The notes: generated by a model not told the origin, from the letters alone. Positions 6,920-46,690 are shown, numbered from the stretch's first letter. The stretch is 64,000 nt of DNA from Candidatus Moraniibacteriota bacterium (GCA_049304095.1 JBAQNU010000024.1:87644-151643), one strand, 5' to 3'. Program-made: numbers and translations.

Positions 6920-8380
6920 ATGTCGAGAATAATGTTTGAACAGAGAAAGCCTAATCGGCTAAGGGTTAAGTTGTATTTGTGGAAAATAAAGTTGATGCAA
7001 AAAAAGGTGCTTATGCGATTAGCCCTTTTTGTTTTGTTCATAGGTGTCTCTGTGTTTCTTTTTTCCTTCGTGCGGACCAATAAACAAATAATTGGCATGA
7101 AAACATTGTCTGCTCTGAACCGCTTTTCCTCACTGTTGCCAATTACTCCCGATGAACAAAAAGAGTTGAATGTTTTGGACCAGTTGGTGGAAAACTTTAG
7201 CAAAAAAGATGGCGTGACCAGGACATTTATGCTGATGCTACAAAATAACATGGAACTGCGACCCGGTGGGGGATTTTTGGGTCAATATGCCATCATCAAA
7301 CTCAAAGATGGCGCAGTTGTTTCATCGTACTTTGAAGATGCAAATCTTTTGGATCAGAGAATTAAAACCAAAGTACCGACGCCTTATCCGTTTGAACGGA
7401 TGATGCAACTCAAAAATTGGAAATTTCGTGATTCCAACTTTTCGCCAGATTTTCCCACTAACGTTGAAAAAGCCAAATATTTCTATCGTCTAGCAGGCAT
7501 GGGAACGAGTACTTTCGATGGAGTGATTGCCGTTAATTCCCAGGTCTTAAACGATATTTTGAAAGTAACTGGACCAATTACTGTCCCGGGCTATAGCGCC
7601 GAATTTACAGCCGATAATGCCTTTCTCAAATTGGAGGAAATAGTGGAAAAACAATATATCTTGAATCCAGACATTGATACGCAAAACCGAAAAGCAATTA
7701 TGAAAAAAATGCTACCAATCATTATTGACAAGTTGTTTAGCGTAAATAACATTTCCAAGCTGGCGGATTTGGCTCATCAAGAATTCAAAGCCAAAAATAT
7801 TATGGTCAATTTCAAGGATGAAAATCTCCAAGCACTGGCGGCGAGCGTTTTTTGGACCGGTGAGATGGCCAAAGATTGGAGCGGGGACTACTTAATGATG
7901 GTGGACTCTAATATGGGAGCACTCAAAACGGATTATTATATGAAACGAGAAATCAACTATGACATTGATCTCACAGGCGAAAAACCAATCGTTAACTTGG
8001 GAATTCTCTACAAAAATACTGCTCCCTATGGCGATTGGCGCACCAGCGACTATCATTCCTATATGCGTCTTTATCTTCCTTTGGGCGCGAAATTACTGGA
8101 AAGAACAATGGTCAACAACATCAGCTCCGGCGAAGATTTCGGCAAAACTTGGATTGGTTTTATGGCGCACGTGCTTATTAGCAGAGAAACTGACGCCAAG
8201 ATTAAATATGAGTTACCAGCCGATTTTCCCCGCGATAACTATCGCTTGCTCATCCAAAAACAATCCGGCGTGACCGACATTCCGGTGAGAGTGCATGTCA
8301 AAACCAAAGATGGTGATTTCAATCAAGAACAACTAATGACCCAGGATTTGAAATTTGAAGTTAAAAATGAGGAAAAATAA
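6920..8380 (+). CDS. N-terminal TM-anchored extracytoplasmic protein, DUF4012-like (NNMELRPGGGFLGQY, DGVIAVN motifs)
   Basis: Single TM after a basic N-terminus. Motifs recalled from the DUF4012 family, which is often found beside polysaccharide genes. The true start may be the internal MQKKVLMRL. Confidence 0.4.
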   Translation: MSRIMFEQRKPNRLRVKLYLWKIKLMQKKVLMRLALFVLFIGVSVFLFSFVRTNKQIIGMKTLSALNRFSSLLPITPDEQKELNVLDQLVENFSKKDGVTRTFMLMLQNNMELRPGGGFLGQYAIIKLKDGAVVSSYFEDANLLDQRIKTKVPTPYPFERMMQLKNWKFRDSNFSPDFPTNVEKAKYFYRLAGMGTSTFDGVIAVNSQVLNDILKVTGPITVPGYSAEFTADNAFLKLEEIVEKQYILNPDIDTQNRKAIMKKMLPIIIDKLFSVNNISKLADLAHQEFKAKNIMVNFKDENLQALAASVFWTGEMAKDWSGDYLMMVDSNMGALKTDYYMKREINYDIDLTGEKPIVNLGILYKNTAPYGDWRTSDYHSYMRLYLPLGAKLLERTMVNNISSGEDFGKTWIGFMAHVLISRETDAKIKYELPADFPRDNYRLLIQKQSGVTDIPVRVHVKTKDGDFNQEQLMTQDLKFEVKNEEK

Positions 8381-9552
8381 TGAACATATCGCTTAAAATT
8401 GACAAGGTTCGGACTTTAATTCGCAGTAATGGAATTTTCGGCAGTGCGAAAAAAGTTTTTGGCTATGCTCAAAAATATCGCGCTGCTTTTACTGTAGCGC
8501 CAGGGGATATTCTTTTCATCGCTTCTGGTGTTGGTGATAGCGCGCATTTTCGCACTTGGAATGTGGCAGAGGAATTGCAGTTGCACGGTTTTCGCGCGTC
8601 AGTGACAATTGCTGATAATCCCAATCTTTTGAAATTAGTCGATGATTTCAAGATATTTATTTTTCACAAAACGGTTTATTCGGAAAAAATTGCCAAAGTA
8701 GTTGAAAAAATTAAAGCGCAAAAAAAAGAAATTATTTTCGACACGGATGATTTGAATTTTGATCCCGCATATTTGGCGCAGATTGATTATCTAAAAAATG
8801 TTGGCGAGGCGGAAAAAGCGCAATATGCCAAAGGGTTGGGGCGAGAAATTTTGGAAGACTCTTATGTGAAAGTGGCAACGACTACAACGACCTATTTAGC
8901 AAAAATTATGAAAGAAAAAGGCAAAAAAGTTTTTGTGGTGACTAATAAGATTTGTAATGAGGAATTGGAAATAGCAAATAAACTAAGGCACGCTGGGAAA
9001 AAAATCAAAGACGATTTTGTTTATCTGGGATATTTCAGTGGAACTCCGAGTCATAATAAAGATTTTGCTACAATCACAGACGCGCTTCTTGCGGTAATGC
9101 GAAAATATAAGAAGACTAAATTGATTCTTGCTGGACCATTGGAGCAGGAAAATAGTCTCAATGAATTTTCTGACAGAATTATTAAATTGCCATTAGTGCC
9201 GAGAGGTGAGCATTATCGAAATGTTCAAAAAGCGGATATTAATCTTGCTCCCCTGGAGAGCACTCCGTTTTGTGAAGCGAAATCAGAAATTAGATTTACC
9301 GGAGCGGGGATTCTTGGTATCCCGACGGTAGCTGTGAGAAATGAAACGTTCTCTGGCGCAATCGAAGACGGCGTGACTGGATTTTTGGCTGGAAATAAGC
9401 TAGAATGGACGGAGAAATTGGGGCGCTTGATTGAAGATGTAAATCTGCGCCGTGTGCTGGGCGAGCGGGCGCGAGAGAAAACGCTCAAGGATTACACGAA
9501 TAAAAACAGTCATAGAGAGGATTACTATAATTACTTAAGAAAAAAACTATGA
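8380..9552 (+). CDS. GT-B glycosyltransferase (GT4-like)
   Basis: C-terminal ESTPFCEAKSEIRFTGAGILGIPTVAV...EDGVTGFL resembles the GT4 E-x7-E region. Confidence 0.5.
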   Translation: MNISLKIDKVRTLIRSNGIFGSAKKVFGYAQKYRAAFTVAPGDILFIASGVGDSAHFRTWNVAEELQLHGFRASVTIADNPNLLKLVDDFKIFIFHKTVYSEKIAKVVEKIKAQKKEIIFDTDDLNFDPAYLAQIDYLKNVGEAEKAQYAKGLGREILEDSYVKVATTTTTYLAKIMKEKGKKVFVVTNKICNEELEIANKLRHAGKKIKDDFVYLGYFSGTPSHNKDFATITDALLAVMRKYKKTKLILAGPLEQENSLNEFSDRIIKLPLVPRGEHYRNVQKADINLAPLESTPFCEAKSEIRFTGAGILGIPTVAVRNETFSGAIEDGVTGFLAGNKLEWTEKLGRLIEDVNLRRVLGERAREKTLKDYTNKNSHREDYYNYLRKKL

Positions 9553-10502
9553 AAATACTTATCACAGGAGGAGCGGGGTTTATTGGATCAAACTTGGCAA
9601 ACAAATTGCTGGAGCGCGGGGATCAAGTCGTTATTATTGATAACTTCAATGATTACTATGACCCGAAAGTGAAACGTGATCGGATTAAAACAATCCTTAA
9701 AGGCAAAAAATTTAAGCTCTACAAAGGTGATATTCGCGATGTGAAACTTTTGGAGCGCATTTTCAAAACCGAAAAATTGGACAAGGTGGTGCATCTCGCT
9801 GCAATGGCCGGTGTGCGTTATGCGATTGAAAATCCCTTGATTTATGCGGACGTGAATGTTTTGGGCACAACCAACCTTTTGCAACTGGCGGCGAAATATA
9901 AATTGAAAAATTTTGTCTATGCCTCGTCTTCTTCGGTCTATGGAAATAATAAAAAATTGCCGTTTTCCGAAACGGATTCGGTGGACACGCCAATCTCACC
10001 CTACGCCGCAACCAAAAAAGCAACGGAGTTGATGGCGCATGTTTTTTCTCATGTACATGGATTGCCTACAACTGGATTGCGATTCTTCACAGTCTATGGA
10101 CCGTGGGGGCGACCGGATATGGCGCTTTTCAAATTTACTAAAAATATTTTGGCCGGGCTTCCAATTGATGTCTATAATCATGGCAAAATGAGTCGCAATT
10201 TTACCTATGTCGATGACATTGTTTCCGGCACAATCACTGTGCTTGATGCGAATTTGCCCTGCGGTGTGATGAATATTGGCGGAGACAAAGAAGAAACACT
10301 GATGCGTTACATTGAAGTGTTGGAAAAATGTCTAGGGAAAGCTGCAAAGAAAAATATGATGCCAATGCAACAGGGTGATGTGCCATCAACTGTGGCAGAC
10401 ATCAAAAAATTGCGTAAATTAGGCTGGAAGCCGACAACGAGGATTGAAAAAGGCATTGCCAATTTTGTCGCGTGGTATAAGGAATATTATAAAATTAAAT
10501 AA
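9549..10502 (+). CDS. NAD-dependent UDP-glucuronate 4-epimerase-like SDR (GalE family)
   Basis: GGAGFIGSNL Rossmann motif, YAATK catalytic YxxxK, FFTVYGPWGRPDMA typical of UDP-GlcA/UDP-GalA epimerases. Confidence 0.8.
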   Translation: MKILITGGAGFIGSNLANKLLERGDQVVIIDNFNDYYDPKVKRDRIKTILKGKKFKLYKGDIRDVKLLERIFKTEKLDKVVHLAAMAGVRYAIENPLIYADVNVLGTTNLLQLAAKYKLKNFVYASSSSVYGNNKKLPFSETDSVDTPISPYAATKKATELMAHVFSHVHGLPTTGLRFFTVYGPWGRPDMALFKFTKNILAGLPIDVYNHGKMSRNFTYVDDIVSGTITVLDANLPCGVMNIGGDKEETLMRYIEVLEKCLGKAAKKNMMPMQQGDVPSTVADIKKLRKLGWKPTTRIEKGIANFVAWYKEYYKIK

Positions 10503-16810: not shown

Positions 16811-18757
16811 ATGCACCAAACATTTTATATTGACATTGATGAGGAAATAACTTCAATCGTGGAAAAGTTGCGAAAAACTGAAGCGCCAGAGGTAATTATG
16901 GTTGTGCCAAAACGGGCACTGCTTATTCAAAGTATCGTTAACTTAAAACTTTTGCGAAAAGTGGCGGAGGAGCTGGGATTGAAAATCAGTATTGTGACCC
17001 AAGATAAACTAGGTAAAATGCTTGTCAACAAAGCAGGCATTGCTGTGCAACAAAAATTGGAAGATGACCCCGAGGAGTTGGAAGCGACTTCGGATAATGG
17101 AGAAAATGGCAAAAAAGTAGTCTTGGAAGATGGCGCAGAGGGTGAACCAGCATCATTGCTAAATAGCAAACAAAACAGACGTCTTGATAGGATTGGTTCC
17201 GCGGAATATTTTAATTATAATAATGAAGAAAATATTCACACCGAATTGGAGCAAATCGAAAAACCAAAAAAACCTTTGGCGCAGAAAGTGCCAATATATG
17301 TTGAAAAAAATAGGCCGAGTGTTGAAAATCCACTTTCTGGCATTCGTTTAGATGAGGAAATACCGGTTGTCAAAAAAAGATCTCCTAGTATGGATGTTTC
17401 GCGTTCAAACATGAGAAAGCCAATCCCAACGCGGGTCGTGCGAGAAAAAACGGTTTTTCCTGAGGAGAAGCAAGGGGAATCTTCTCGCGATGAGCAACTG
17501 GAACAGTTTTTCTATGCGAATAATTTTGCGGATAGAAAAAAATCTGATTCTCTTGGAGAAGAACGTAGCAAAAAAAACGTTGGAACAGGGCTTAAGATCC
17601 TGGCTATTATTTTGGCCATTGCACTGACCGGAGGATTGGCTTATGGAGCCTATCTCTATGTGCCTAAAGCTATAATCACTCTTTCTGCTAAAAAGGAAGT
17701 AAAATCAACTGAAGCAAACATCACTGCTACTACCAACCAAGAAAGCATTGATTTGGAAAAATCAATTATTCCAGCAAAAGTGTTAGATTTTGATGATACA
17801 GTTTCTCAAACCTTTGTAGCTACTGGGGAAAAGAGTGTTTCTGATCAAAAAGCCAAAGGTAAGATTACAATCTATAATGAATTCAGTTCTTTGCCGCAAC
17901 CGCTAGTGGCAACAACCAGGTTTATAAGCGAAGACCAGAAAATATTTCGTTTAGTGCAAAGTGTGACCATTCCCGGTACCACTAAAGTTGGCACGGAAAT
18001 AAAGCCAGGCGTTACCGAAGCGGAAGTTATTGCTGATGAATCTGGCGATGGCTATAACATTCCTGCGGCCAATTTTTCCATCCCTGGTTTCAAAGATAGT
18101 GGCAGTGAGAAATATGCCAAGATTTATGCCAAGTCTACCGCGGCAATGACTGGTGGTGGAACGGGTGGCAGTACTGTGAAAATGATTACTGACAAGGATT
18201 TGGCAGACGCAAAAGACAAAATTTCCCTGGAGATTACTGATGCGATAAAGCAAAAAGTTAAGGATTCAGTCGGCTCTGGTCAGGTCGTTTTGGACAAAGC
18301 AATTTCCCTGGAGGAACCAGTTTATACCTTGTCTGGTGCAGTTGGTGATATTGTGGATAATTTTGAAATAAAAGTTCAAGCCAAAGCCAAGGCAATTGTA
18401 TTTCTGGAAAGTGACCTAAAAAAACTTGCTAACACCATCATTGTTAAAACAAAAAATAGTAAGGTAAACCTGAACGATGGGGCATTGATTATCGACTATG
18501 GGCAAGTAAATGCTGACTTTAGTGCAAATACTCTGGATATTGCAATAAAAGCTTCCAGCGTGACAGAGCCGAATTTTGACTTGGAAGCTATGAAAAAAGG
18601 CTTCCTGGGGAAAGACACAGAAGCGTTGACGGATTATCTGAAGAGTTATCCTAACATTGAAAAAGCGGAAGTGGAATATTGGCCGCCAGTGTTTGTGAAC
18701 AAGGTTCCAATGCAAGAGAAGAGAGTGGAAGTGATTTTGGATTATATCATGCCCTAG
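16811..18757 (+). CDS. Hypothetical bitopic membrane protein: ~255-aa cytoplasmic N-domain, one TM, ~370-aa extracytoplasmic domain
   Basis: TM segment GLKILAIILAIALTGGLAYGAYLYV. Downstream of and likely co-transcribed with the FtsA-like gene. Confidence 0.4.
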   Translation: MHQTFYIDIDEEITSIVEKLRKTEAPEVIMVVPKRALLIQSIVNLKLLRKVAEELGLKISIVTQDKLGKMLVNKAGIAVQQKLEDDPEELEATSDNGENGKKVVLEDGAEGEPASLLNSKQNRRLDRIGSAEYFNYNNEENIHTELEQIEKPKKPLAQKVPIYVEKNRPSVENPLSGIRLDEEIPVVKKRSPSMDVSRSNMRKPIPTRVVREKTVFPEEKQGESSRDEQLEQFFYANNFADRKKSDSLGEERSKKNVGTGLKILAIILAIALTGGLAYGAYLYVPKAIITLSAKKEVKSTEANITATTNQESIDLEKSIIPAKVLDFDDTVSQTFVATGEKSVSDQKAKGKITIYNEFSSLPQPLVATTRFISEDQKIFRLVQSVTIPGTTKVGTEIKPGVTEAEVIADESGDGYNIPAANFSIPGFKDSGSEKYAKIYAKSTAAMTGGGTGGSTVKMITDKDLADAKDKISLEITDAIKQKVKDSVGSGQVVLDKAISLEEPVYTLSGAVGDIVDNFEIKVQAKAKAIVFLESDLKKLANTIIVKTKNSKVNLNDGALIIDYGQVNADFSANTLDIAIKASSVTEPNFDLEAMKKGFLGKDTEALTDYLKSYPNIEKAEVEYWPPVFVNKVPMQEKRVEVILDYIMP

Positions 18758-18803
18758 GGTGGAGGCAGTGGGCAAAAATTAATTTTTATGCTATCCTAAA
18801 ACT

Positions 18804-19418
18804 ATGAAAAAAATGGAAAATACAGAAGAAGAGATTGTAATTTTAGCCAGTGATTCGCGAGAAGATAAACTATTGACACGTCTTTTTTTTGTGGTGTTTT
18901 TTGGTTCAATATTTTTTGGTTTTCTCCGGTTTGTAGTTTTTAAAAACTATTATATCGAAGCACAGAGTGATTGCGATCCGACGGCGGAAAAATGTTTTGT
19001 TTGGCAGTGCGATCCCGAATCGACAGTAGAAGGCGAGGCTTGCACGGGCGACCCGGAGAGTGATGCTTCTTATTATAAAATAATTAAAAAGAAAGCTAAT
19101 ACGGTTCCGGCTTGCGATCCGAATAATGATGAAAATTGTCCGCAAATAATTTGTGCGCTAGGTGAAAAAAATTGCACGGAAATTTTTTGCAATGAGGAAA
19201 ATAAGATTGACCAGGAAGCGGAGTGTAATGATCCAGAACAATATTTAAAAGATAATCCACCCGAAGAGGAGGAGGATTTAGTTGATGATGGGGATGCTGC
19301 CGAAGAAAGCGATGAATTGGTTGACGAAGTGGATTCTAGCGATACTTCTGAAGCGAGTATCCAAGCTGTCGAAACTACTACTGACCCAACTGCTGTTGAG
19401 AATAGTTCTGATAACTAG
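18804..19418 (+). CDS. Hypothetical N-terminally anchored Cys-rich protein (about 12 Cys) with an acidic D/E-rich C-terminal tail
   Basis: TM at residues ~25-45, then CDPxxxxC / CxxDPES repeats, then EEEEDLVDDGDAAEESDELVDEVDSSD. Confidence 0.4.
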   Translation: MKKMENTEEEIVILASDSREDKLLTRLFFVVFFGSIFFGFLRFVVFKNYYIEAQSDCDPTAEKCFVWQCDPESTVEGEACTGDPESDASYYKIIKKKANTVPACDPNNDENCPQIICALGEKNCTEIFCNEENKIDQEAECNDPEQYLKDNPPEEEEDLVDDGDAAEESDELVDEVDSSDTSEASIQAVETTTDPTAVENSSDN

Positions 19419-19432
19419 CAATATTACGCACA

Positions 19433-19661
19433 ATATCCGAAAACACTTCGCATATAAACGAGTTGTGGCGAAATGTCACGCGCTCCGCTTGTTCCATTTC
19501 ACCACAACGTGAAGCTATGCGAAGGGGGCTCTCTCATTTCAGAATAGAACCGCCCTTAACCGCCGCACGTGACACATCGCACAACACCAGATATGCGGCT
19601 ATCGCCCAAATCCCGATGAGTACATCGGGACTTCGCATAGCTTCACGTTATCGGAAATAAT
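19433..19661. repeat. GC-rich island of nested inverted repeats: hairpin gttgtggcgaaatg/catttcaccacaac (19462-19507), perfect 19-bp inverted repeat aacgtgaagctatgcgaag (19506-19524) / cttcgcatagcttcacgtt (19631-19649), 9-mer cttcgcata three times, outer atatccgaaaac / gttatcggaaat
   Basis: Seen directly in the sequence. Local GC is far above the surrounding AT-rich DNA. ORFs 19282-19512 and 19463-19660 are Arg-rich and probably non-coding. Confidence 0.5.
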
Positions 19662-19727
19662 TAAAATTTTTTATCTTTTTTTAAAAATAATTAGCTGGAA
19701 CTATTTTTTAAAATTAACATAAATTGT

Positions 19728-19985
19728 ATGAAAAAAACTACTTATTTAATCATCGCCATAATTTCTTTGATTGTTTCTTATCTCTCTTACGAATTGCTTA
19801 TCGCAACTATTGCATGCACTAATTGCTCTGAATGTGTTAGTGCTTGCACTATATTGTTTTTCAAGATAGGCGAAAATAAATTATCTTCTGGTGAATTATT
19901 CAACATATCCAGATTAGTTTCCGTTTTTATTTTCATTTTAACTTTTTTAGGAATATACTTTTTTAAAAAAAATAGTTTCAAATAA
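19728..19985 (+). CDS. Hypothetical small 2-TM protein with CTNCSECVSAC motif
   Basis: 85-aa ORF: hydrophobic helix, Cys cluster, hydrophobic helix. Confidence 0.35.
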   Translation: MKKTTYLIIAIISLIVSYLSYELLIATIACTNCSECVSACTILFFKIGENKLSSGELFNISRLVSVFIFILTFLGIYFFKKNSFK

Positions 19986-20121
19986 TTTTTCAATAATGAG
20001 GATAAAAAATTCTAATTACATCCGATAACACGGCATATCCGGTTCAGGAATTTTTTTTGGCAATTTTCTAGGTCGGAATAGCTCATCCTAAGATAATAAT
20101 TTTTTTAACAAAACAAATATT

Positions 20122-20508
20122 ATGAAAAAAATAGTAACATTAAGTTTTGTGGTGCTTGGGGTAGTCTTTTTGGCTGGGTGTGGTCAACAGGCAGCGACGA
20201 CAGTACCAGCGGCGCAGCAACCAACTCAGTCAGTTACAACTCAACAGTTCGCAGCTACACCAGTTGCAGAAACTAAAATTGTTTTACCAATTGATTCCAA
20301 AGAAGAAGCTTGTTTGGCTTGGGATAATTTAAAAATTTCATATGGATCATATGGTCCACAAAGTTGTTATGATGCTCAAGATAAAGGTGATTATTGGGAA
20401 ATAAGAGCTTCGGGAAATGGTTGTACTGGTTGCGACGGTAGAATAAATAAACAGGATGGATCTTTTGTTGACAAACAATGTTTCATAGCTAATACCTGTA
20501 ATGAATAA
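20122..20508 (+). CDS. Hypothetical secreted lipoprotein (lipobox LAGC), 8 Cys
   Basis: MKKIVTLSFVVLGVVFLAGC signal peptide with lipobox, Q/T-rich linker, Cys-rich C-terminal domain. Confidence 0.45.
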   Translation: MKKIVTLSFVVLGVVFLAGCGQQAATTVPAAQQPTQSVTTQQFAATPVAETKIVLPIDSKEEACLAWDNLKISYGSYGPQSCYDAQDKGDYWEIRASGNGCTGCDGRINKQDGSFVDKQCFIANTCNE

Positions 20509-20801
20509 ATTACCAAAGAAATACACTAAGGAAGAAGAAATTTCTGGCTACATCACATAACAACGCATATCTGGCTACAGGAAATTGACCAAAGCGATTC
20601 AAGGAGTGTCAATTTCCCTTCGCCCAAATTTTCATTCCTTAGTTTTGATGAAGGTTTAGGCGGGGATAATTAAATAAAGCTTTGTCTGAAATCAAGAGTC
20701 TATCCTGCTAAGTCGGGATGAAAACTTCAGATGATGCGTAAACGTTGTGGCGAAATAGATTTTTTTGTGTTTGCGAGAAACCCCAAATCCGATTATAATA
20801 A

Positions 20802-20830
20802 CAGCAGAGAGAAATCTCTGCTGTTTTTTT
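20802..20830 (+). terminator. Intrinsic terminator cagcagag-agaaat-ctctgctg followed by 7 T, ending immediately before the ATG of the ABC exporter
   Basis: Perfect 8-bp stem and T7 tract. It lies inside the listed ORF 20765-22618, whose true start is therefore ATG 20831. Confidence 0.6.
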
Positions 20831-22618
20831 ATGCAAATTATTATGCCAAAAGAAGTAGAAGCAAAAATTGATCTAAGGAGTTTTTGGAAGCATATTTGGA
20901 AACTTCTGGAGCCAAGTCAAAAACAGATAAAACACTTGCTCGTTTTGATTATGGCAATGGAGGTTGTGCGCTTGGCTGGTCCCTATATGCTCAAATTAGT
21001 AATTGATAAAATTACTCACTTTGACGTGGCCCAGCTCGGAGGCGTTTTATTTTTAGTGGGAATGATGTTTCTTATCAATCAAATTCTTTCATTGACTGAT
21101 TATATAACGGATATAAAAATATTTAACATTTTCGTGGACATTGACGCCTATTTAGCCAACAATGCTCACAAAAAAATGGTTTTTTTGAGTTTGGGTTATC
21201 ATGAAAAAGAAAATACTGGCAGTAAAGTCATCAAAATAACTCGCGGTATTGATAAGATTGATGGTTTGTTTGGTGATTTTTGTTGGGAGGTAGCGCCAAC
21301 TGTTTTTCAAATCATCCTAACGACAGTTACCCTTTTTGTGGTTAACTGGCGTTTTGGATTGATCATTTCGATCTTTGTGCCTATCTTTGTTTTTCTTACT
21401 CTGCGTGTTAATAGACTGGTGTTTCCTTTTCGCAAAAAACGGTTTGATGAGCAGGAGGTGGCGGCAAGTCTCATGACTCAATCAATCATCAACATCAACA
21501 CGGTGAAATCTTTTGTAGCGGAAATGCGTGAATATACTAAATTTTCTCAAGCAACAAAAAATGTAAAAAACAGTGTGCTTAAGGAATATGGCAAAATTAT
21601 CCAATATAACGTAGCTCGAAACCTAGTAATTGATCTTGGGCGCGCGTTTGTTTTGATTTTTGGCATTTATCTTGTGATTAAGGGGCAAATCACCATTGGT
21701 AGTATCGTTTTTGTCTACACTATTTCGGAAAAAGCCTTGCTATCACTGTTTCGCATCTCGCGCCTCTATGATCGCATTATGGAGTCCAGTGAAGCGGTTG
21801 AACGCCTATATGCACTGTCAATCGAAAAAGAGACCATCAAAAATAATCCCAGGGGGTTGAAACCAAAAAATATCGAGGGTACGATTGAGTTCAAAGACCT
21901 ATCGTTTTGTTATGCGGATAGCGATAACCGGGCACTTGATAGGGTAAGTTTTACGATTGGTTCTGGCTGTGTAACGGCGCTGGTTGGTCCGTCGGGCGGA
22001 GGGAAGACTACGGTTGTCCGGATGCTCTATCGGCATTATGATCCCGCGAGCGGACAAATTCTTTTGGATGGACATGATTTGCGCGACTATGATCTCTATG
22101 CTTTTCGCCGTTTTATGGCGATTGTTCCTCAGGAAGTGGAAATTTTTGATACGAGTGTGCGAGAAAACATTGCTTATGCTAAAGCTAACGCAACGTTGGC
22201 AGAAATAAAAGCGGCGGCGCGCATTGCCAATGCCGAGGAGTTTATCTTGCAATTGAAAGATGGCTATGACACGACAGTTGGAGAGCGCGGAATCAAGCTT
22301 TCTGGAGGACAAAGACAACGCGTGGGAATTGCTCGAGCAATTCTGGCCAATCCGCGCATTCTTGTTTTTGACGAAGCAACATCTAGCCTTGACTCCTATT
22401 CGGAACGACTCATTCAAGATGCTATGGATAAAATTAGCAAAAATAGAACGGTGATTGTGATTGCTCATCGCTTAAGCACAATCAAAAAAGCGGACAAGAT
22501 CATAGTTCTCGAACGAGGAAAAGTGGTTGAGGCGGGCAGTCACCTAGAATTGTCTCATATGGCTGGCGGACTTTATCATAAATTGATCAAGCTGCAAGAA
22601 GTGGGGGATGTGGAATAA
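20831..22618 (+). CDS. ABC transporter, fused permease/ATPase (MsbA/lipid-A exporter-like, type I exporter)
   Basis: 6-TM domain followed by Walker A GPSGGGKTT, signature LSGGQRQR and Walker B ILVFDEATS. Confidence 0.8.
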   Translation: MQIIMPKEVEAKIDLRSFWKHIWKLLEPSQKQIKHLLVLIMAMEVVRLAGPYMLKLVIDKITHFDVAQLGGVLFLVGMMFLINQILSLTDYITDIKIFNIFVDIDAYLANNAHKKMVFLSLGYHEKENTGSKVIKITRGIDKIDGLFGDFCWEVAPTVFQIILTTVTLFVVNWRFGLIISIFVPIFVFLTLRVNRLVFPFRKKRFDEQEVAASLMTQSIININTVKSFVAEMREYTKFSQATKNVKNSVLKEYGKIIQYNVARNLVIDLGRAFVLIFGIYLVIKGQITIGSIVFVYTISEKALLSLFRISRLYDRIMESSEAVERLYALSIEKETIKNNPRGLKPKNIEGTIEFKDLSFCYADSDNRALDRVSFTIGSGCVTALVGPSGGGKTTVVRMLYRHYDPASGQILLDGHDLRDYDLYAFRRFMAIVPQEVEIFDTSVRENIAYAKANATLAEIKAAARIANAEEFILQLKDGYDTTVGERGIKLSGGQRQRVGIARAILANPRILVFDEATSSLDSYSERLIQDAMDKISKNRTVIVIAHRLSTIKKADKIIVLERGKVVEAGSHLELSHMAGGLYHKLIKLQEVGDVE

Positions 22619-30037: not shown

Positions 30038-30121
30038 TGCCAAAGGAGAGAATCGAACTCTCATGGGATTACTCCCGCACGATTTTGAGTCGTGTGCGTC
30101 TACCAATTCCGCCACTTCGGC
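30038..30121 (-). tRNA. tRNA-Leu (anticodon CAA) with long variable arm
   Basis: Reverse complement folds as a cloverleaf: acceptor stem GCCGAAG/CUUUGGC, D arm, anticodon loop CUCAAAA, 16-nt variable arm, T arm GAGAGTTCGATTCTCTC. CCA is not encoded. Confidence 0.8.
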
Positions 30122-44869: not shown

Positions 44870-46690
44870 ATGATTACCGCGAAAGATCTCCGACAAAAAT
44901 ATCTCGATTTTTTCAAAAGCAAAGGACATGCTGTCATCCCTTCTGCGCCACTGGTGCCGGAAAATGATCCGACGACGCTCTTTATTAATTCCGGCATGCA
45001 TCCGCTGGTGCCATATTTGATGGGCGAAAAGCATCCACTGGGAAAAAGACTAACTGATGCGCAAAAATGTATCCGCACGGGGGACATTGATGAGGTGGGG
45101 GACACGACTCATCATACTTTTTTTGAAATGCTGGGAAATTGGTCGCTTGGTGATTATTTCAAAAAAGACGCACTGGAGTGGAGTTGGGAATTTCTAACTT
45201 CGCCAGAATGGTTGGGCCTTGATAAAAAAAGAATCGCTTGCTCGGTTTTCGAAGGAGATGAGGACGCGACTTTTGACGACGAAGCGCACAAGATTTGGCT
45301 CGAGATCGGAATGCCAGAAAAAAAGATTGCCAAATTGCCTAAGAAAAACAATTGGTGGGGGCCAGCTGGAGTGACAGGCCCGTGCGGACCAGACAGTGAA
45401 ATGTTCTATTGGGTGGGCGAAGAAGACAGCGTGCCAGATAGCTTTAATGATGATAATGCTTTGTGGATAGAAATCTGGAATGATGTTTTTATGGAGTTTA
45501 ATAAAAACGAAAAAGGAGAATATGGAAAACTAGCCGCGCAAAATGTGGACACAGGCATGGGGCTGGAGCGAGTTTTGGCGGCGCTAAATGGACAAAGCGA
45601 TAATTATCGCACAGAACTTTTTTGGCCATTGATTCAAAAAATAGAGGAATTGTCAGGAAAAAAATATGCCGAAAGTGATGGCATAAAAAAAGCCATGCGA
45701 ATTATTTCTGATCACATTAAAGCCGCCGCTTTTATTATTGCTGACGGCGTAGAGCCATCCAACACAGAAAGGGGCTATATTCTGCGTCGTCTTATTCGTC
45801 GTGCGATTCGACAAGGACATCTTTTGGGAATTAATAAAAATTTTACAACTGAAATTGTGAAAGTTGTGCAAAATATTTATGGCGAAATTTATCCGGAAAT
45901 TTTGCAAAACAAAATTTTAGTTGAATTGGAAAAAGAAGAAGAAAAGTTCAGAAAAACGCTAGAAAATGGGCTAAAAGAATTAAAAAGAATTATTGATAGT
46001 AGAATCAAGGGATTTGATCCTGCTGGTTCGAATAAATTTATTGATTGTAAAATAAGAGTCAATGGAAGAGATATTTTTAATGTTTATCAAACATATGGTT
46101 TCCCGCCGGAGCTTTCCCAAGAGGTGGTTTCGGATTGGGGGATTGCATTTGATGAAGAAACAATGAATGAATGTAAGAGAGAATTTGAAAAACATCAAGA
46201 ACTCTCTCGCACAGCTTCCGCCGGAATGTTTAAGGGTGGGCTTTCAGACACAAAAGAAAAAACAACCGAGCTACATACTGTGGCGCATTTGATGCTGGCG
46301 GGACTGCGCAAAGTGCTTGGAGAAAATGTGCATCAAAAAGGATCAAACATTAATGGCGAACGCATTCGTTTTGATTTTTCGCATCCGGACAAAATGACTG
46401 ACGAACAGAAAAAAGCTGTGGAGGATTTTGTGAATAAGGCAATTGAATCAAAAACAGAAGTAGCAATGGAAGAAATGACTCCAGATGAAGCGAAAAATGC
46501 CGGAGCAGAAGGGGAGTTTGGGCATAAATATGGTGATCGGGTCAAGGTCTATTCTATTGGAGAATATTCCAAAGAAATTTGTGGCGGACCACATATTAGC
46601 AATACTTCCGAGATCCAGGGAAAGTTTAAGATTCAAAAAGAAGAAAGCTCTTCGGCTGGTGTGCGGAGGATTAAAGCGGTGCTGATTTGA
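44870..46690 (+). CDS. alaS: Alanine--tRNA ligase, truncated form (catalytic plus editing domains, no C-Ala domain)
   Basis: Class II AlaRS N-terminus (FFKSKGH..., GDIDEVGDTTHHTFFEMLGNWSLGDYFK) and editing-domain HxxxH ... GGPH. Confidence 0.85.
   Translation: MITAKDLRQKYLDFFKSKGHAVIPSAPLVPENDPTTLFINSGMHPLVPYLMGEKHPLGKRLTDAQKCIRTGDIDEVGDTTHHTFFEMLGNWSLGDYFKKDALEWSWEFLTSPEWLGLDKKRIACSVFEGDEDATFDDEAHKIWLEIGMPEKKIAKLPKKNNWWGPAGVTGPCGPDSEMFYWVGEEDSVPDSFNDDNALWIEIWNDVFMEFNKNEKGEYGKLAAQNVDTGMGLERVLAALNGQSDNYRTELFWPLIQKIEELSGKKYAESDGIKKAMRIISDHIKAAAFIIADGVEPSNTERGYILRRLIRRAIRQGHLLGINKNFTTEIVKVVQNIYGEIYPEILQNKILVELEKEEEKFRKTLENGLKELKRIIDSRIKGFDPAGSNKFIDCKIRVNGRDIFNVYQTYGFPPELSQEVVSDWGIAFDEETMNECKREFEKHQELSRTASAGMFKGGLSDTKEKTTELHTVAHLMLAGLRKVLGENVHQKGSNINGERIRFDFSHPDKMTDEQKKAVEDFVNKAIESKTEVAMEEMTPDEAKNAGAEGEFGHKYGDRVKVYSIGEYSKEICGGPHISNTSEIQGKFKIQKEESSSAGVRRIKAVLI

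Follow-up and report, generated by a model that had tools for sequence, protein, structure and literature searches.

A block of nested inverted repeats in the genome of a Candidatus Moraniibacteriota bacterium is probably a composite DNA recombination site that heads a small array of gene cassettes, part of an integron-like system in candidate phyla radiation bacteria (CPR, also called Patescibacteria). The block occupies positions 19433-19661 of a 64,000-nt stretch (GCA_049304095.1 JBAQNU010000024.1:87644-151643), the whole of which is called the window here and from whose first letter positions are counted. It sits between a 204-aa gene that ends at 19418 and an open reading frame (ORF) of 85 aa at 19728-19985. 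Integrons combine an integrase (IntI), an attI site and cassettes bounded by attC sites, and clusters of attC sites without an integrase are termed CALIN (Cury et al. 2016, PMC4889954). In silico comparison of the window with related loci (given L numbers below) establishes the anatomy of the sites, the covariation of their helices, the organisation of the arrays, the boundaries at a GTT and the association with a recombinase. A preliminary description of this DNA had treated the block as a single DNA-level site of unnamed kind; the DNA level stands, the single unit does not.

The structure of the block is beyond chance. Its minimum free energy (MFE) z-score is -8.9 on the plus strand and -8.1 on the minus strand, and none of 200 dinucleotide shuffles folds as well. 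All of the repeats first described were found again: a perfect 19-bp inverted repeat (19506-19524 and 19631-19649) with 106 nt between its arms; the hairpin CCCGATG-AGTA-CATCGGG (19612-19629); three copies of CTTCGCATA, direct at 19446 and 19631 and inverted at 19516-19524; an outer pair, ATATCCGAAAAC (19433-19444) and GTTATCGGAAAT (19647-19658), complementary at 10 of 12 positions; and a degenerate copy of the arm, GTGACACATCGCACAAC (19570-19586). Two details needed correction. The 14-nt hairpin GTTGTGGCGAAATG / CATTTCACCACAAC is present at 19462-19475 / 19495-19508, with one C.A mismatch, and so ends one position beyond the 19507 first given; the 13-mer GTTGTGGCGAAAT does recur, but at 20744-20756 rather than 20745-20757. 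As to the term 'GC-rich island', the GC content of the block (0.44-0.48) fits it in comparison with the DNA downstream (0.26-0.28) but hardly with the upstream gene (0.40-0.43).

Within this block three units can be told apart which, judged from sequence, are in all likelihood an attI-like site, a mini-cassette without an ORF and a branched attC-like site, all read on the plus strand. The attI-like simple site (19420-19461, ...CAATATTACGCACAATATCCGAAAACACTTCGCATATAAACGA) ends immediately 5' of the putative crossover GTT and contains the inverted arms ATATCCGAA (19433-19441) and TTCGCATAT (19447-19455). It aligns with a conserved site that stands, in the 12 loci of alignment A4, 50-230 nt away from a recombinase start codon, and also with sites in L191, L194 and L195; in the window it is the 204-aa gene, not a recombinase, that lies upstream. 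The mini-cassette opens with an R'-type 3' box, GTTGTGGCGAAATG (19462-19475), which pairs with the R''-type 5' box of the attC-like site, CATTTCACCACAAC (19495-19508), across a 19-nt loop, TCACGCGCTCCGCTTGTTC (19476-19494). This pairing covaries in homologues, the same box-loop-box hairpin with a different yet complementary core being found in L194, L195, L176, L110 and L099. The loop holds a recurrent motif, CGCTCCGCT, also seen in L176, L081, L087 and L194.

The long closing helix of the attC-like site is the 19-bp inverted repeat. Its 5' arm (19506-19524) consists of the AAC of R'', a GT spacer and the L''-like GAAGCTATGCGAAG, and its 3' arm (19631-19649) of an L'-like arm, an AC spacer and the GTT of R'. 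The helix is retained with different sequences in L176, L113, L114, L099, L110, L083 and L194. It encloses a branched, variable terminal structure (19525-19630) that includes the 5'-box-like ACATCGCACAAC (19574-19585), the conserved junction CCCAAAT (19605-19611), the CCCGATG-AGTA-CATCGGG hairpin (19612-19629) and, starting at 19630 and extending into the 3' arm, a conserved ACTTC (19630-19634). CCCAAAT, a hairpin and ACTTC are common to all type-1 copies of the site (alignment A1) and to the type-2 homologues (A2, A5). The R' box GTTATCGGAAAT then runs into the conserved left end of the next cassette, AATTAAAATTTTTTATC (19647-19675 together), and the 30-nt string made up of the two recurs after attC- or attI-like sites in L184, L153, L143, L081, L159, L099 and L087.

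How widespread are such sites? Comparison of the block, both downstream intergenic regions and their homologues gave a family pattern in which the 5' box reads ATC-nnnn-AAC and precedes GCATATCYGG, and the 3' box reads ACGTT-nnnn-GAAAT. A scan with the 5' pattern placed the same site family on at least 120 metagenome contigs; viral contigs scanned with the motif gave a single real match. A typical copy of about 95 nt reads ACATCGCACAAC AC GGCATATCTGG, hairpin, CCACCCAAAT, hairpin, ACTTC AGATATGCC GAAAC GTTATCGGAAAT. The block shares its boxes and junction motifs with the family and has full-length homologues in L176, L099, L087, L113 and L114 (nhmmer; alignment A2). Throughout 37 aligned copies AAC and GTT are invariant within an R''-L''...L'-R' architecture. 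The stem GGCATATCYGG / CRGAT(G)ATGCC covaries, as do the hairpins, and in type-1 copies P1 changes from C-G to T-A and L'' covaries with L'. Standard pairs fill 88.7% of the pair cells of alignment A5, against 26-46% when the partner is slid; nine pairs are altered on both sides, and none of 500 shuffles equals this result.

The sites belong to the 3' ends of genes: about 100 of the 106 informative copies have a co-oriented ORF 2-200 nt upstream of the site, and the next gene is convergent in about 22 cases. The same arrangement rules out a 5' leader or riboswitch. The proteins encoded upstream are diverse (GNAT, MazG, HicA, NUDIX, HsdR, methyltransferases, small membrane proteins and some housekeeping enzymes), and attC bodies 82-90% identical stand behind different genes. 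Many contigs carry one-directional arrays with sites spaced 0.3-2.3 kb apart, among them L128 (at least six sites), L145, L139, L113 and L099. In L128 (reverse orientation, 8144-10070) a 963-nt cassette is present in two tandem copies directly after the attI-like site.

In these arrays a 3' box has a variable core whose complement is found in the 5' box of the next site downstream and not in that of its own site. For instance, in L145 GTTATGTG matches CACATAAC, GTTAGGCG matches CGCCTAAC and GTTATCGG matches CCGATAAC, and in L137 GTTCTGCG matches CGCAGAAC. In the window, GTTATCGG at 19647 matches CCGATAAC at 20018 across the 85-aa ORF, and the R' box plus left end (19647-19675) is the inverted complement of 19987-20029. 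Of 84 sites, 36 have an exact 8-mer partner upstream, which almost without exception stands in the context of a 3' box or of attI, as against 6/76 and 6/84 in controls; these counts come from strict detection, looser automatic detectors being too noisy in AT-rich DNA. A closing helix between the 5' and 3' boxes of one and the same site was ruled out, because the two are exact complements in only 7 of 102 copies.

Where independent arrays share homology, it sets in and breaks off exactly at GTT. Positions 12763-13507 of L128 match 3755-4499 of L137 at 89.5% between unrelated flanks, and the pairs L071/L190, L145/L175 and L090/L145 are identical through ACGTT(A) and then diverge. Integron cassettes cross over at G|TT of R', and breaks in homology at GTT are what such cassettes show. 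As in integrons, too, the cassette boundary falls at GTT and the R' core belongs to the downstream cassette. In the cassette shared by L128 (12763) and L137 (3755) the right-end core, CAGATAAC, is identical and the left-end cores differ (GTTAAGTG vs GTTATCTG), which suggests either an exchange point 3' of the core or a staggered two-strand exchange.

The arrays are associated with a recombinase gene. Three ORFs among eight array loci, one of them L128:6403-7275, match the Phage_integrase and SAM-like N-terminal domains (PF00589 + PF13495). By tblastn, homologues (39-80% identity) are present in 17 loci selected through the motif; none was detected in 67 control Moranbacteria loci or anywhere in the 64-kb window. 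In each of the 16 loci examined the attI-like simple site (consensus TATACGAAAACACTTCGTATATAAACGA|GTT-core-GAAAT) lies 50-230 nt from the recombinase start codon, with the gene divergent and the array after the site. L191, L194 and L195, picked through the protein alone, have the same layout and bring the total to 19 loci; in these three, two or three variable genes, including Bro-N, DUF218 and a HepT/MNT toxin-antitoxin pair, stand between conserved housekeeping genes. In L194, also from Ca. Moraniibacteriota, a full homologue of the block directly adjoins the recombinase gene, and the version in L195 is minimal, with a loop of 4 nt closed by the long helix.

The recombinase is a XerA-like tyrosine recombinase of about 270 aa. 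Its best family is NF040815 (recomb_XerA_Arch; 217-238 bits, with the cut-off of 220 reached by three of four proteins), and its best PDB matches are XerA. At least 6734 proteins belong to the family at E<=1e-30 among the candidates scored. The closest members, again of about 270 aa, come from metagenome-assembled genomes (MAGs) of Patescibacteria and are labelled 'tyrosine-type recombinase/integrase' or 'XerD'. Given that the window has no recombinase gene, its array would be an integrase-less, CALIN-like copy.

Two further observations concern the surroundings of these genes and arrays. The other flank of the recombinase gene holds ComEC-like competence genes (Lactamase_B and Competence domains) in two loci (L128, 7358-8221 and 36-371; L081, 9394-10257), neighbours that could matter if cassettes arrive as single-stranded DNA by transformation. 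Transposase genes occur too: one of the IS110 family within the array of L099 (2741-3691), and one of the Y1 type (IS200/IS605) in L191 (6547-7218), where it falls in the variable region next to the recombinase gene.

The mechanism that we propose is drawn by analogy with integrons; recombination activity, the folding strand and the position of cleavage are what we infer. The array in the window would run from the attI-like site (19420-19461) through the GTT at 19462 and the mini-cassette (19462-19508) to the branched attC-like site, and from its R' box GTTATCGGAAAT (19647-19658) on to cassette 1 (85 aa) and cassette 2 (128 aa). As a single strand, an attC-like site would fold into a stem of R box, spacer and L box, followed by the branched tip. 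A XerA-like recombinase would bind the R and L boxes, with strand exchange at the conserved GTT or beside it. Cassettes built as TT-core...ORF...core-AAC-L''-tip-L'-G would subsequently leave as circles and insert at the attI-like site.

Does the folding single out one strand, as an attC-like mechanism might be expected to? Integrons recombine the folded bottom strand of attC, and extrahelical bases determine which strand is chosen. By raw MFE, 70 of 81 sites fold more stably on the bottom strand, but we dropped this as proof of such a mechanism, the raw difference being mostly compositional. Part of the copies have a bulged G in L', and the second hairpin base has a conserved A.C juxtaposition (G.T on the bottom strand), which is a hint only.

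Several findings weigh against an integron-like system. After shuffle control the advantage of the bottom strand is gone (excess of -15.5 vs -14.6 kcal/mol, 34/60 sites, p=0.12). The recombinase scores 205-212 with the integron-integrase profile TIGR02249, below the cut-off of 265, and has no IntI-specific additional domain. It aligns with VchIntIA (2a3v) in two pieces, residues 8-178 and 194-270 with IntI4 9-182 and 241-317, which means that about 15 aa stand in for some 58 aa of the IntI-specific region. In integron integrases the additional domain contacts the folded single-stranded attC sites. As quoted, Messier and Roy (2001) reported this domain to be necessary for integron integrase activity. 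The protein is moreover 75-93% identical across many genomes and set among housekeeping genes. In the window, the lack of a recombinase gene means that this copy may be inert, and the second site of the array (from 20018) is truncated. Finally, the different left-end cores of one shared cassette make the exact crossover position within ACGTT-core uncertain.

The likeness to integrons is nevertheless extensive. A divergent tyrosine recombinase gene and an adjacent simple site are followed by a one-directional array of ORFs and folded sites, the position of an attI site beside a divergent integrase gene at the array head being that seen in the 16 loci selected through the motif and the three selected through the protein. 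The folded sites are imperfect palindromes 3' of an ORF, as attC sites are, and follow the same order: R''(..AAC), spacer, L'', variable tip, L', spacer, R'(GTT..), with AAC and GTT invariant. Their R' core, like that of integrons, goes with the downstream cassette. Cargo such as GNAT, MazG, toxin-antitoxin genes and small membrane proteins recalls that of chromosomal integrons, and the tandem duplication in L128 and the ORF-less cassette of the window also have integron counterparts. The differences begin with the enzyme: the combination of PF00589 with the IntI-specific domain near patch III (IntegronFinder's intI_Cterm profile) that marks an integron integrase is not found in the recombinases of the related loci. 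The CPR boxes are longer (12-30 nt), the spacers are asymmetric (2 nt vs 5 nt), and the tip, with its invariant CCCAAAT and ACTTC, forms a conserved three-way junction; the organisms that carry the sites are Patescibacteria. CPR genomes are small, about 1 Mb. Genomes below 2 Mb have been reported to be without complete integrons (Cury et al. 2016, PMC4889954).

Two known arrangements come particularly close. With attC-like sites at 19495-19658, from 20018 (truncated) and at 20550-20756, and no integrase within 64 kb, the array in the window would qualify as a CALIN, for which two clustered attC sites suffice, provided that these sites are equivalents of attC. In the superintegron of Vibrio cholerae, the attC sites known as VCRs are about 120 nt long, highly similar within and between arrays, and stand behind unrelated small ORFs; the CPR sites, with their 82-90% identity, resemble them in this, but are a different sequence family with a branched tip, and have another type of recombinase in another phylum.

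It is an evenly balanced proposition that CPR cassette capture works as a system of its own, with a recombinase of about 270 aa that is XerA-like and has no IntI domain (I2 helix), with its own branched attC-like sites and with an attI-like site that possibly doubles as dif. If so, the system would represent either an ancestral 'proto-integron' or an integron invented anew and independently. Current integron finders, which require an IntI-specific profile and whose attC model may fail, would also miss it.

An alternative that we consider possible though rather unlikely starts from the Xer side. The recombinase, a lone XerA/XerS-like enzyme, would be the housekeeping chromosome-dimer resolvase, the attI-like site its dif, the cassettes elements that pile up at dif in the manner of integrative mobile elements exploiting Xer (IMEX), and the block a displaced dif-like site together with IMEX attachment sites. 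Much about the enzyme suits this: archaeal XerA as its best family and best structure, the missing IntI-specific domain, and the simple site beside the gene, two inverted arms of 8-9 nt around about 5 nt; the arms of a dif site stand around a centre of 6-8 bp. In the XerS/difSL system the recombinase gene likewise adjoins its own site, and CTX phage exploits Xer through a folded single-stranded attP, so that folded attachment sites on an incoming element have a precedent. The high conservation of the protein and its housekeeping neighbourhood are also what a dimer resolvase would show, and the enzyme may serve as one too, with the attI-like site as its dif. Against this, the simple site seems not to be confined to one per chromosome beside its recombinase gene, as the window has a copy without the gene and a similar one lies within an array of L113. 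The arrays, in which many small single-gene cassettes each bring a folded site and a cassette-specific core, and the tandem duplication resemble integron cassettes and not known IMEXs; to our knowledge no IMEX is organised in this way. The Xer explanation in any case differs from an integron-like one chiefly in name and evolutionary origin, and not in the nature of the block.

That the block is instead a structured RNA, a 3'-untranslated or intergenic element (stabiliser, processing site or small RNA) transcribed with the upstream gene and with its repeats as RNA helices, is improbable. The strong folding z-scores on both strands, the covarying helices and the constant place just 3' of a co-oriented gene would all suit an RNA, as would the top (sense) strand, which folds about equally well after composition control. 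Yet no Rfam family is matched at the gathering or E-value threshold: with Rfam 15 the whole window gave only a tRNA (30038-30121) at gathering score, and at E<=10 the best match in 19300-20900 was STnc490, with 26.8 bits vs 56, and nothing was credible. An RNA would moreover leave three things unexplained: the match, across a gene, between a 3'-box core and the 5' box of the site that follows; the breaks at GTT in the homology between arrays; and the recombinase gene and related simple site at the head of the arrays. The preference of the preliminary description for a DNA-level site over an ordinary small RNA, with a mobile insertion as a possibility, accordingly agrees with the absence of an RNA family, the one-directional arrays, the pairing across cassettes, the GTT breaks and the recombinase gene that adjoins the attI-like site of related loci. 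A side-effect of the element at the RNA level, such as termination, is possible.

It had also been said that a protein-coding homologue, or conservation as ordinary spacer in relatives, would count against the block as a distinct element. No protein-coding homologue was matched. The FtsA/648-aa gene neighbourhood recurs in Candidatus Moraniibacteriota and other Patescibacteria MAGs, and the block is absent from 67 Moranbacteria loci anchored on the 648-aa neighbour, synteny ending after the 204-aa gene so that presence or absence at the exact place is unreadable. Relatives do not keep the block as plain spacer; the closest of them, L002, has only a terminator after its homologue of the 204-aa gene.

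Miniature inverted-repeat transposable elements (MITEs) or REP-like relics, in which the boxes would be the terminal inverted repeats of small non-autonomous transposons near gene ends, are very improbable: what speaks for them is that structured, GC-rich elements recur in AT-rich intergenic DNA, that the boxes repeat one another in inverted form and that IS110 and Y1 transposase genes lie in two array regions, but the elements are nearly always co-oriented with the upstream gene and the arrays are one-directional, whereas MITEs normally insert in both orientations. The inverted repeats flank genes and not the structured element (7/102, as above), and the enzyme that accompanies the elements, a Xer/IntI-like tyrosine recombinase, has a simple site next to its gene. 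No target-site duplications were seen, although no systematic search for them was made. A CRISPR repeat or tracrRNA was rejected as well, the window containing no array or tandem repeat.

To return to the proposed cassette array, its downstream part in the window lies on the plus strand. Cassette 1 has as cargo the 85-aa ORF (19728-19985), which encodes a Cys-rich small membrane protein; it is absent from the NCBI annotation and has only weak Pfam matches (holin, Fer4). It is probably a real cassette gene, because it lies exactly between complementary cassette ends. The right end of the cassette (19987-20042) comprises R'' ACATCCGATAAC (20018-20029), an AC spacer and L'' GGCATATCCGG (20032-20042). 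This attC-like site breaks off there, with no L'/R' half ahead of the next gene, and the 5' half that is left is identical to that of complete copies in L081, L099 and L176. Cassette 2 carries an ORF of 128 aa (20122-20508) with a lipoprotein-like signal peptide and no Pfam family, the N-terminus of which resembles cassette-borne ORFs of L139 and L145.

The array ends with a complete type-1 attC-like site (20550-20756) with a large branched interior. Its 5' half consists of R'' ACATCACATAAC (20550-20561) and L'' CGCATATCTGG (20564-20574), and its 3' half of L' CAGATGATGCG (20728-20738) and R' GTTGTGGCGAAAT (20744-20756). Since this R' is identical to 19462-19474, the site accounts for the recurrence of the 13-mer. 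The same architecture is found in L083, L092, L094 and L157, and the region 20509-20842 matches positions 145-382 of L019, from another Moranbacteria genome (nhmmer E=2e-42). No further attC-like site follows 20756 in the window. A terminator-like hairpin with a T-run (20800-20825) stands between this last site and the start of an ABC-transporter gene at 20843; it is the sole terminator-like site within 18700-21000. A box-like hairpin elsewhere (45863-45910, GTTGTGCAAAAT...ATTTTGCAAAAC) was set aside as a chance match, as it is inside an alanyl-tRNA synthetase gene and the other features of the family are absent around it.

Direct repeats of the form CAATATT(A/C)(C/T)G lie upstream of the attI-like arms, both in the window (19420-19441) and beside the recombinase gene in L081, L128 and L120. 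They recall the accessory integrase-binding direct repeats of attI1. The more distal of them is replaced in the window by the end of the 204-aa gene, which points to a rearrangement breakpoint at about 19419; the array in the window was probably separated from its integrase by this rearrangement.

A second conserved module is found about 120 nt upstream of many attC-like sites. It reads AATAAGGAG, then a hairpin GTTTTTGATTTTGGGCA-TTCACCCCTnACCCCTC-TGCCCAAAATCAAAAAC, begins right after the stop codon of unrelated genes and has GTT...AAC ends that resemble the boxes. Copies are at 1357-1407 and 3659-3709 of L145, at about 6033 in L175, 10854 in L090, 6518 in L071 and 4361 in L190, and also in L127, L130, L134, L139 and L153. 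Possibly it is a further cassette without an ORF, or else it belongs to a longer site.

A search of the literature turned up no description of integrons or attC sites in CPR bacteria or Patescibacteria, and a widespread integron-like system in these organisms has apparently gone undescribed so far. The conserved motifs ATC-nnnn-AAC ... CCCAAAT ... ACTTC ... ACGTT-nnnn-GAAAT and TATACGAAAACACTTCGTATATAAACGA|GTT can be used to annotate such arrays. Integrons are the textbook case of gene capture and shuffling, and here the full cassette logic is found alongside a recombinase without the defining domain. According to a 2026 survey, no attC can be detected on 97% of the contigs that carry 'integron-type' recombinases, for which it names novel attC sites as one possible reason (PMC13323075). 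If active, the CPR arrays would be a concrete example of these suspected sites (PMC13323075). They would also offer a testable case for the origin of integron-type recombination from Xer-type enzymes, and would represent a path by which genes are exchanged within a very large portion of the bacterial tree that is uncultured.

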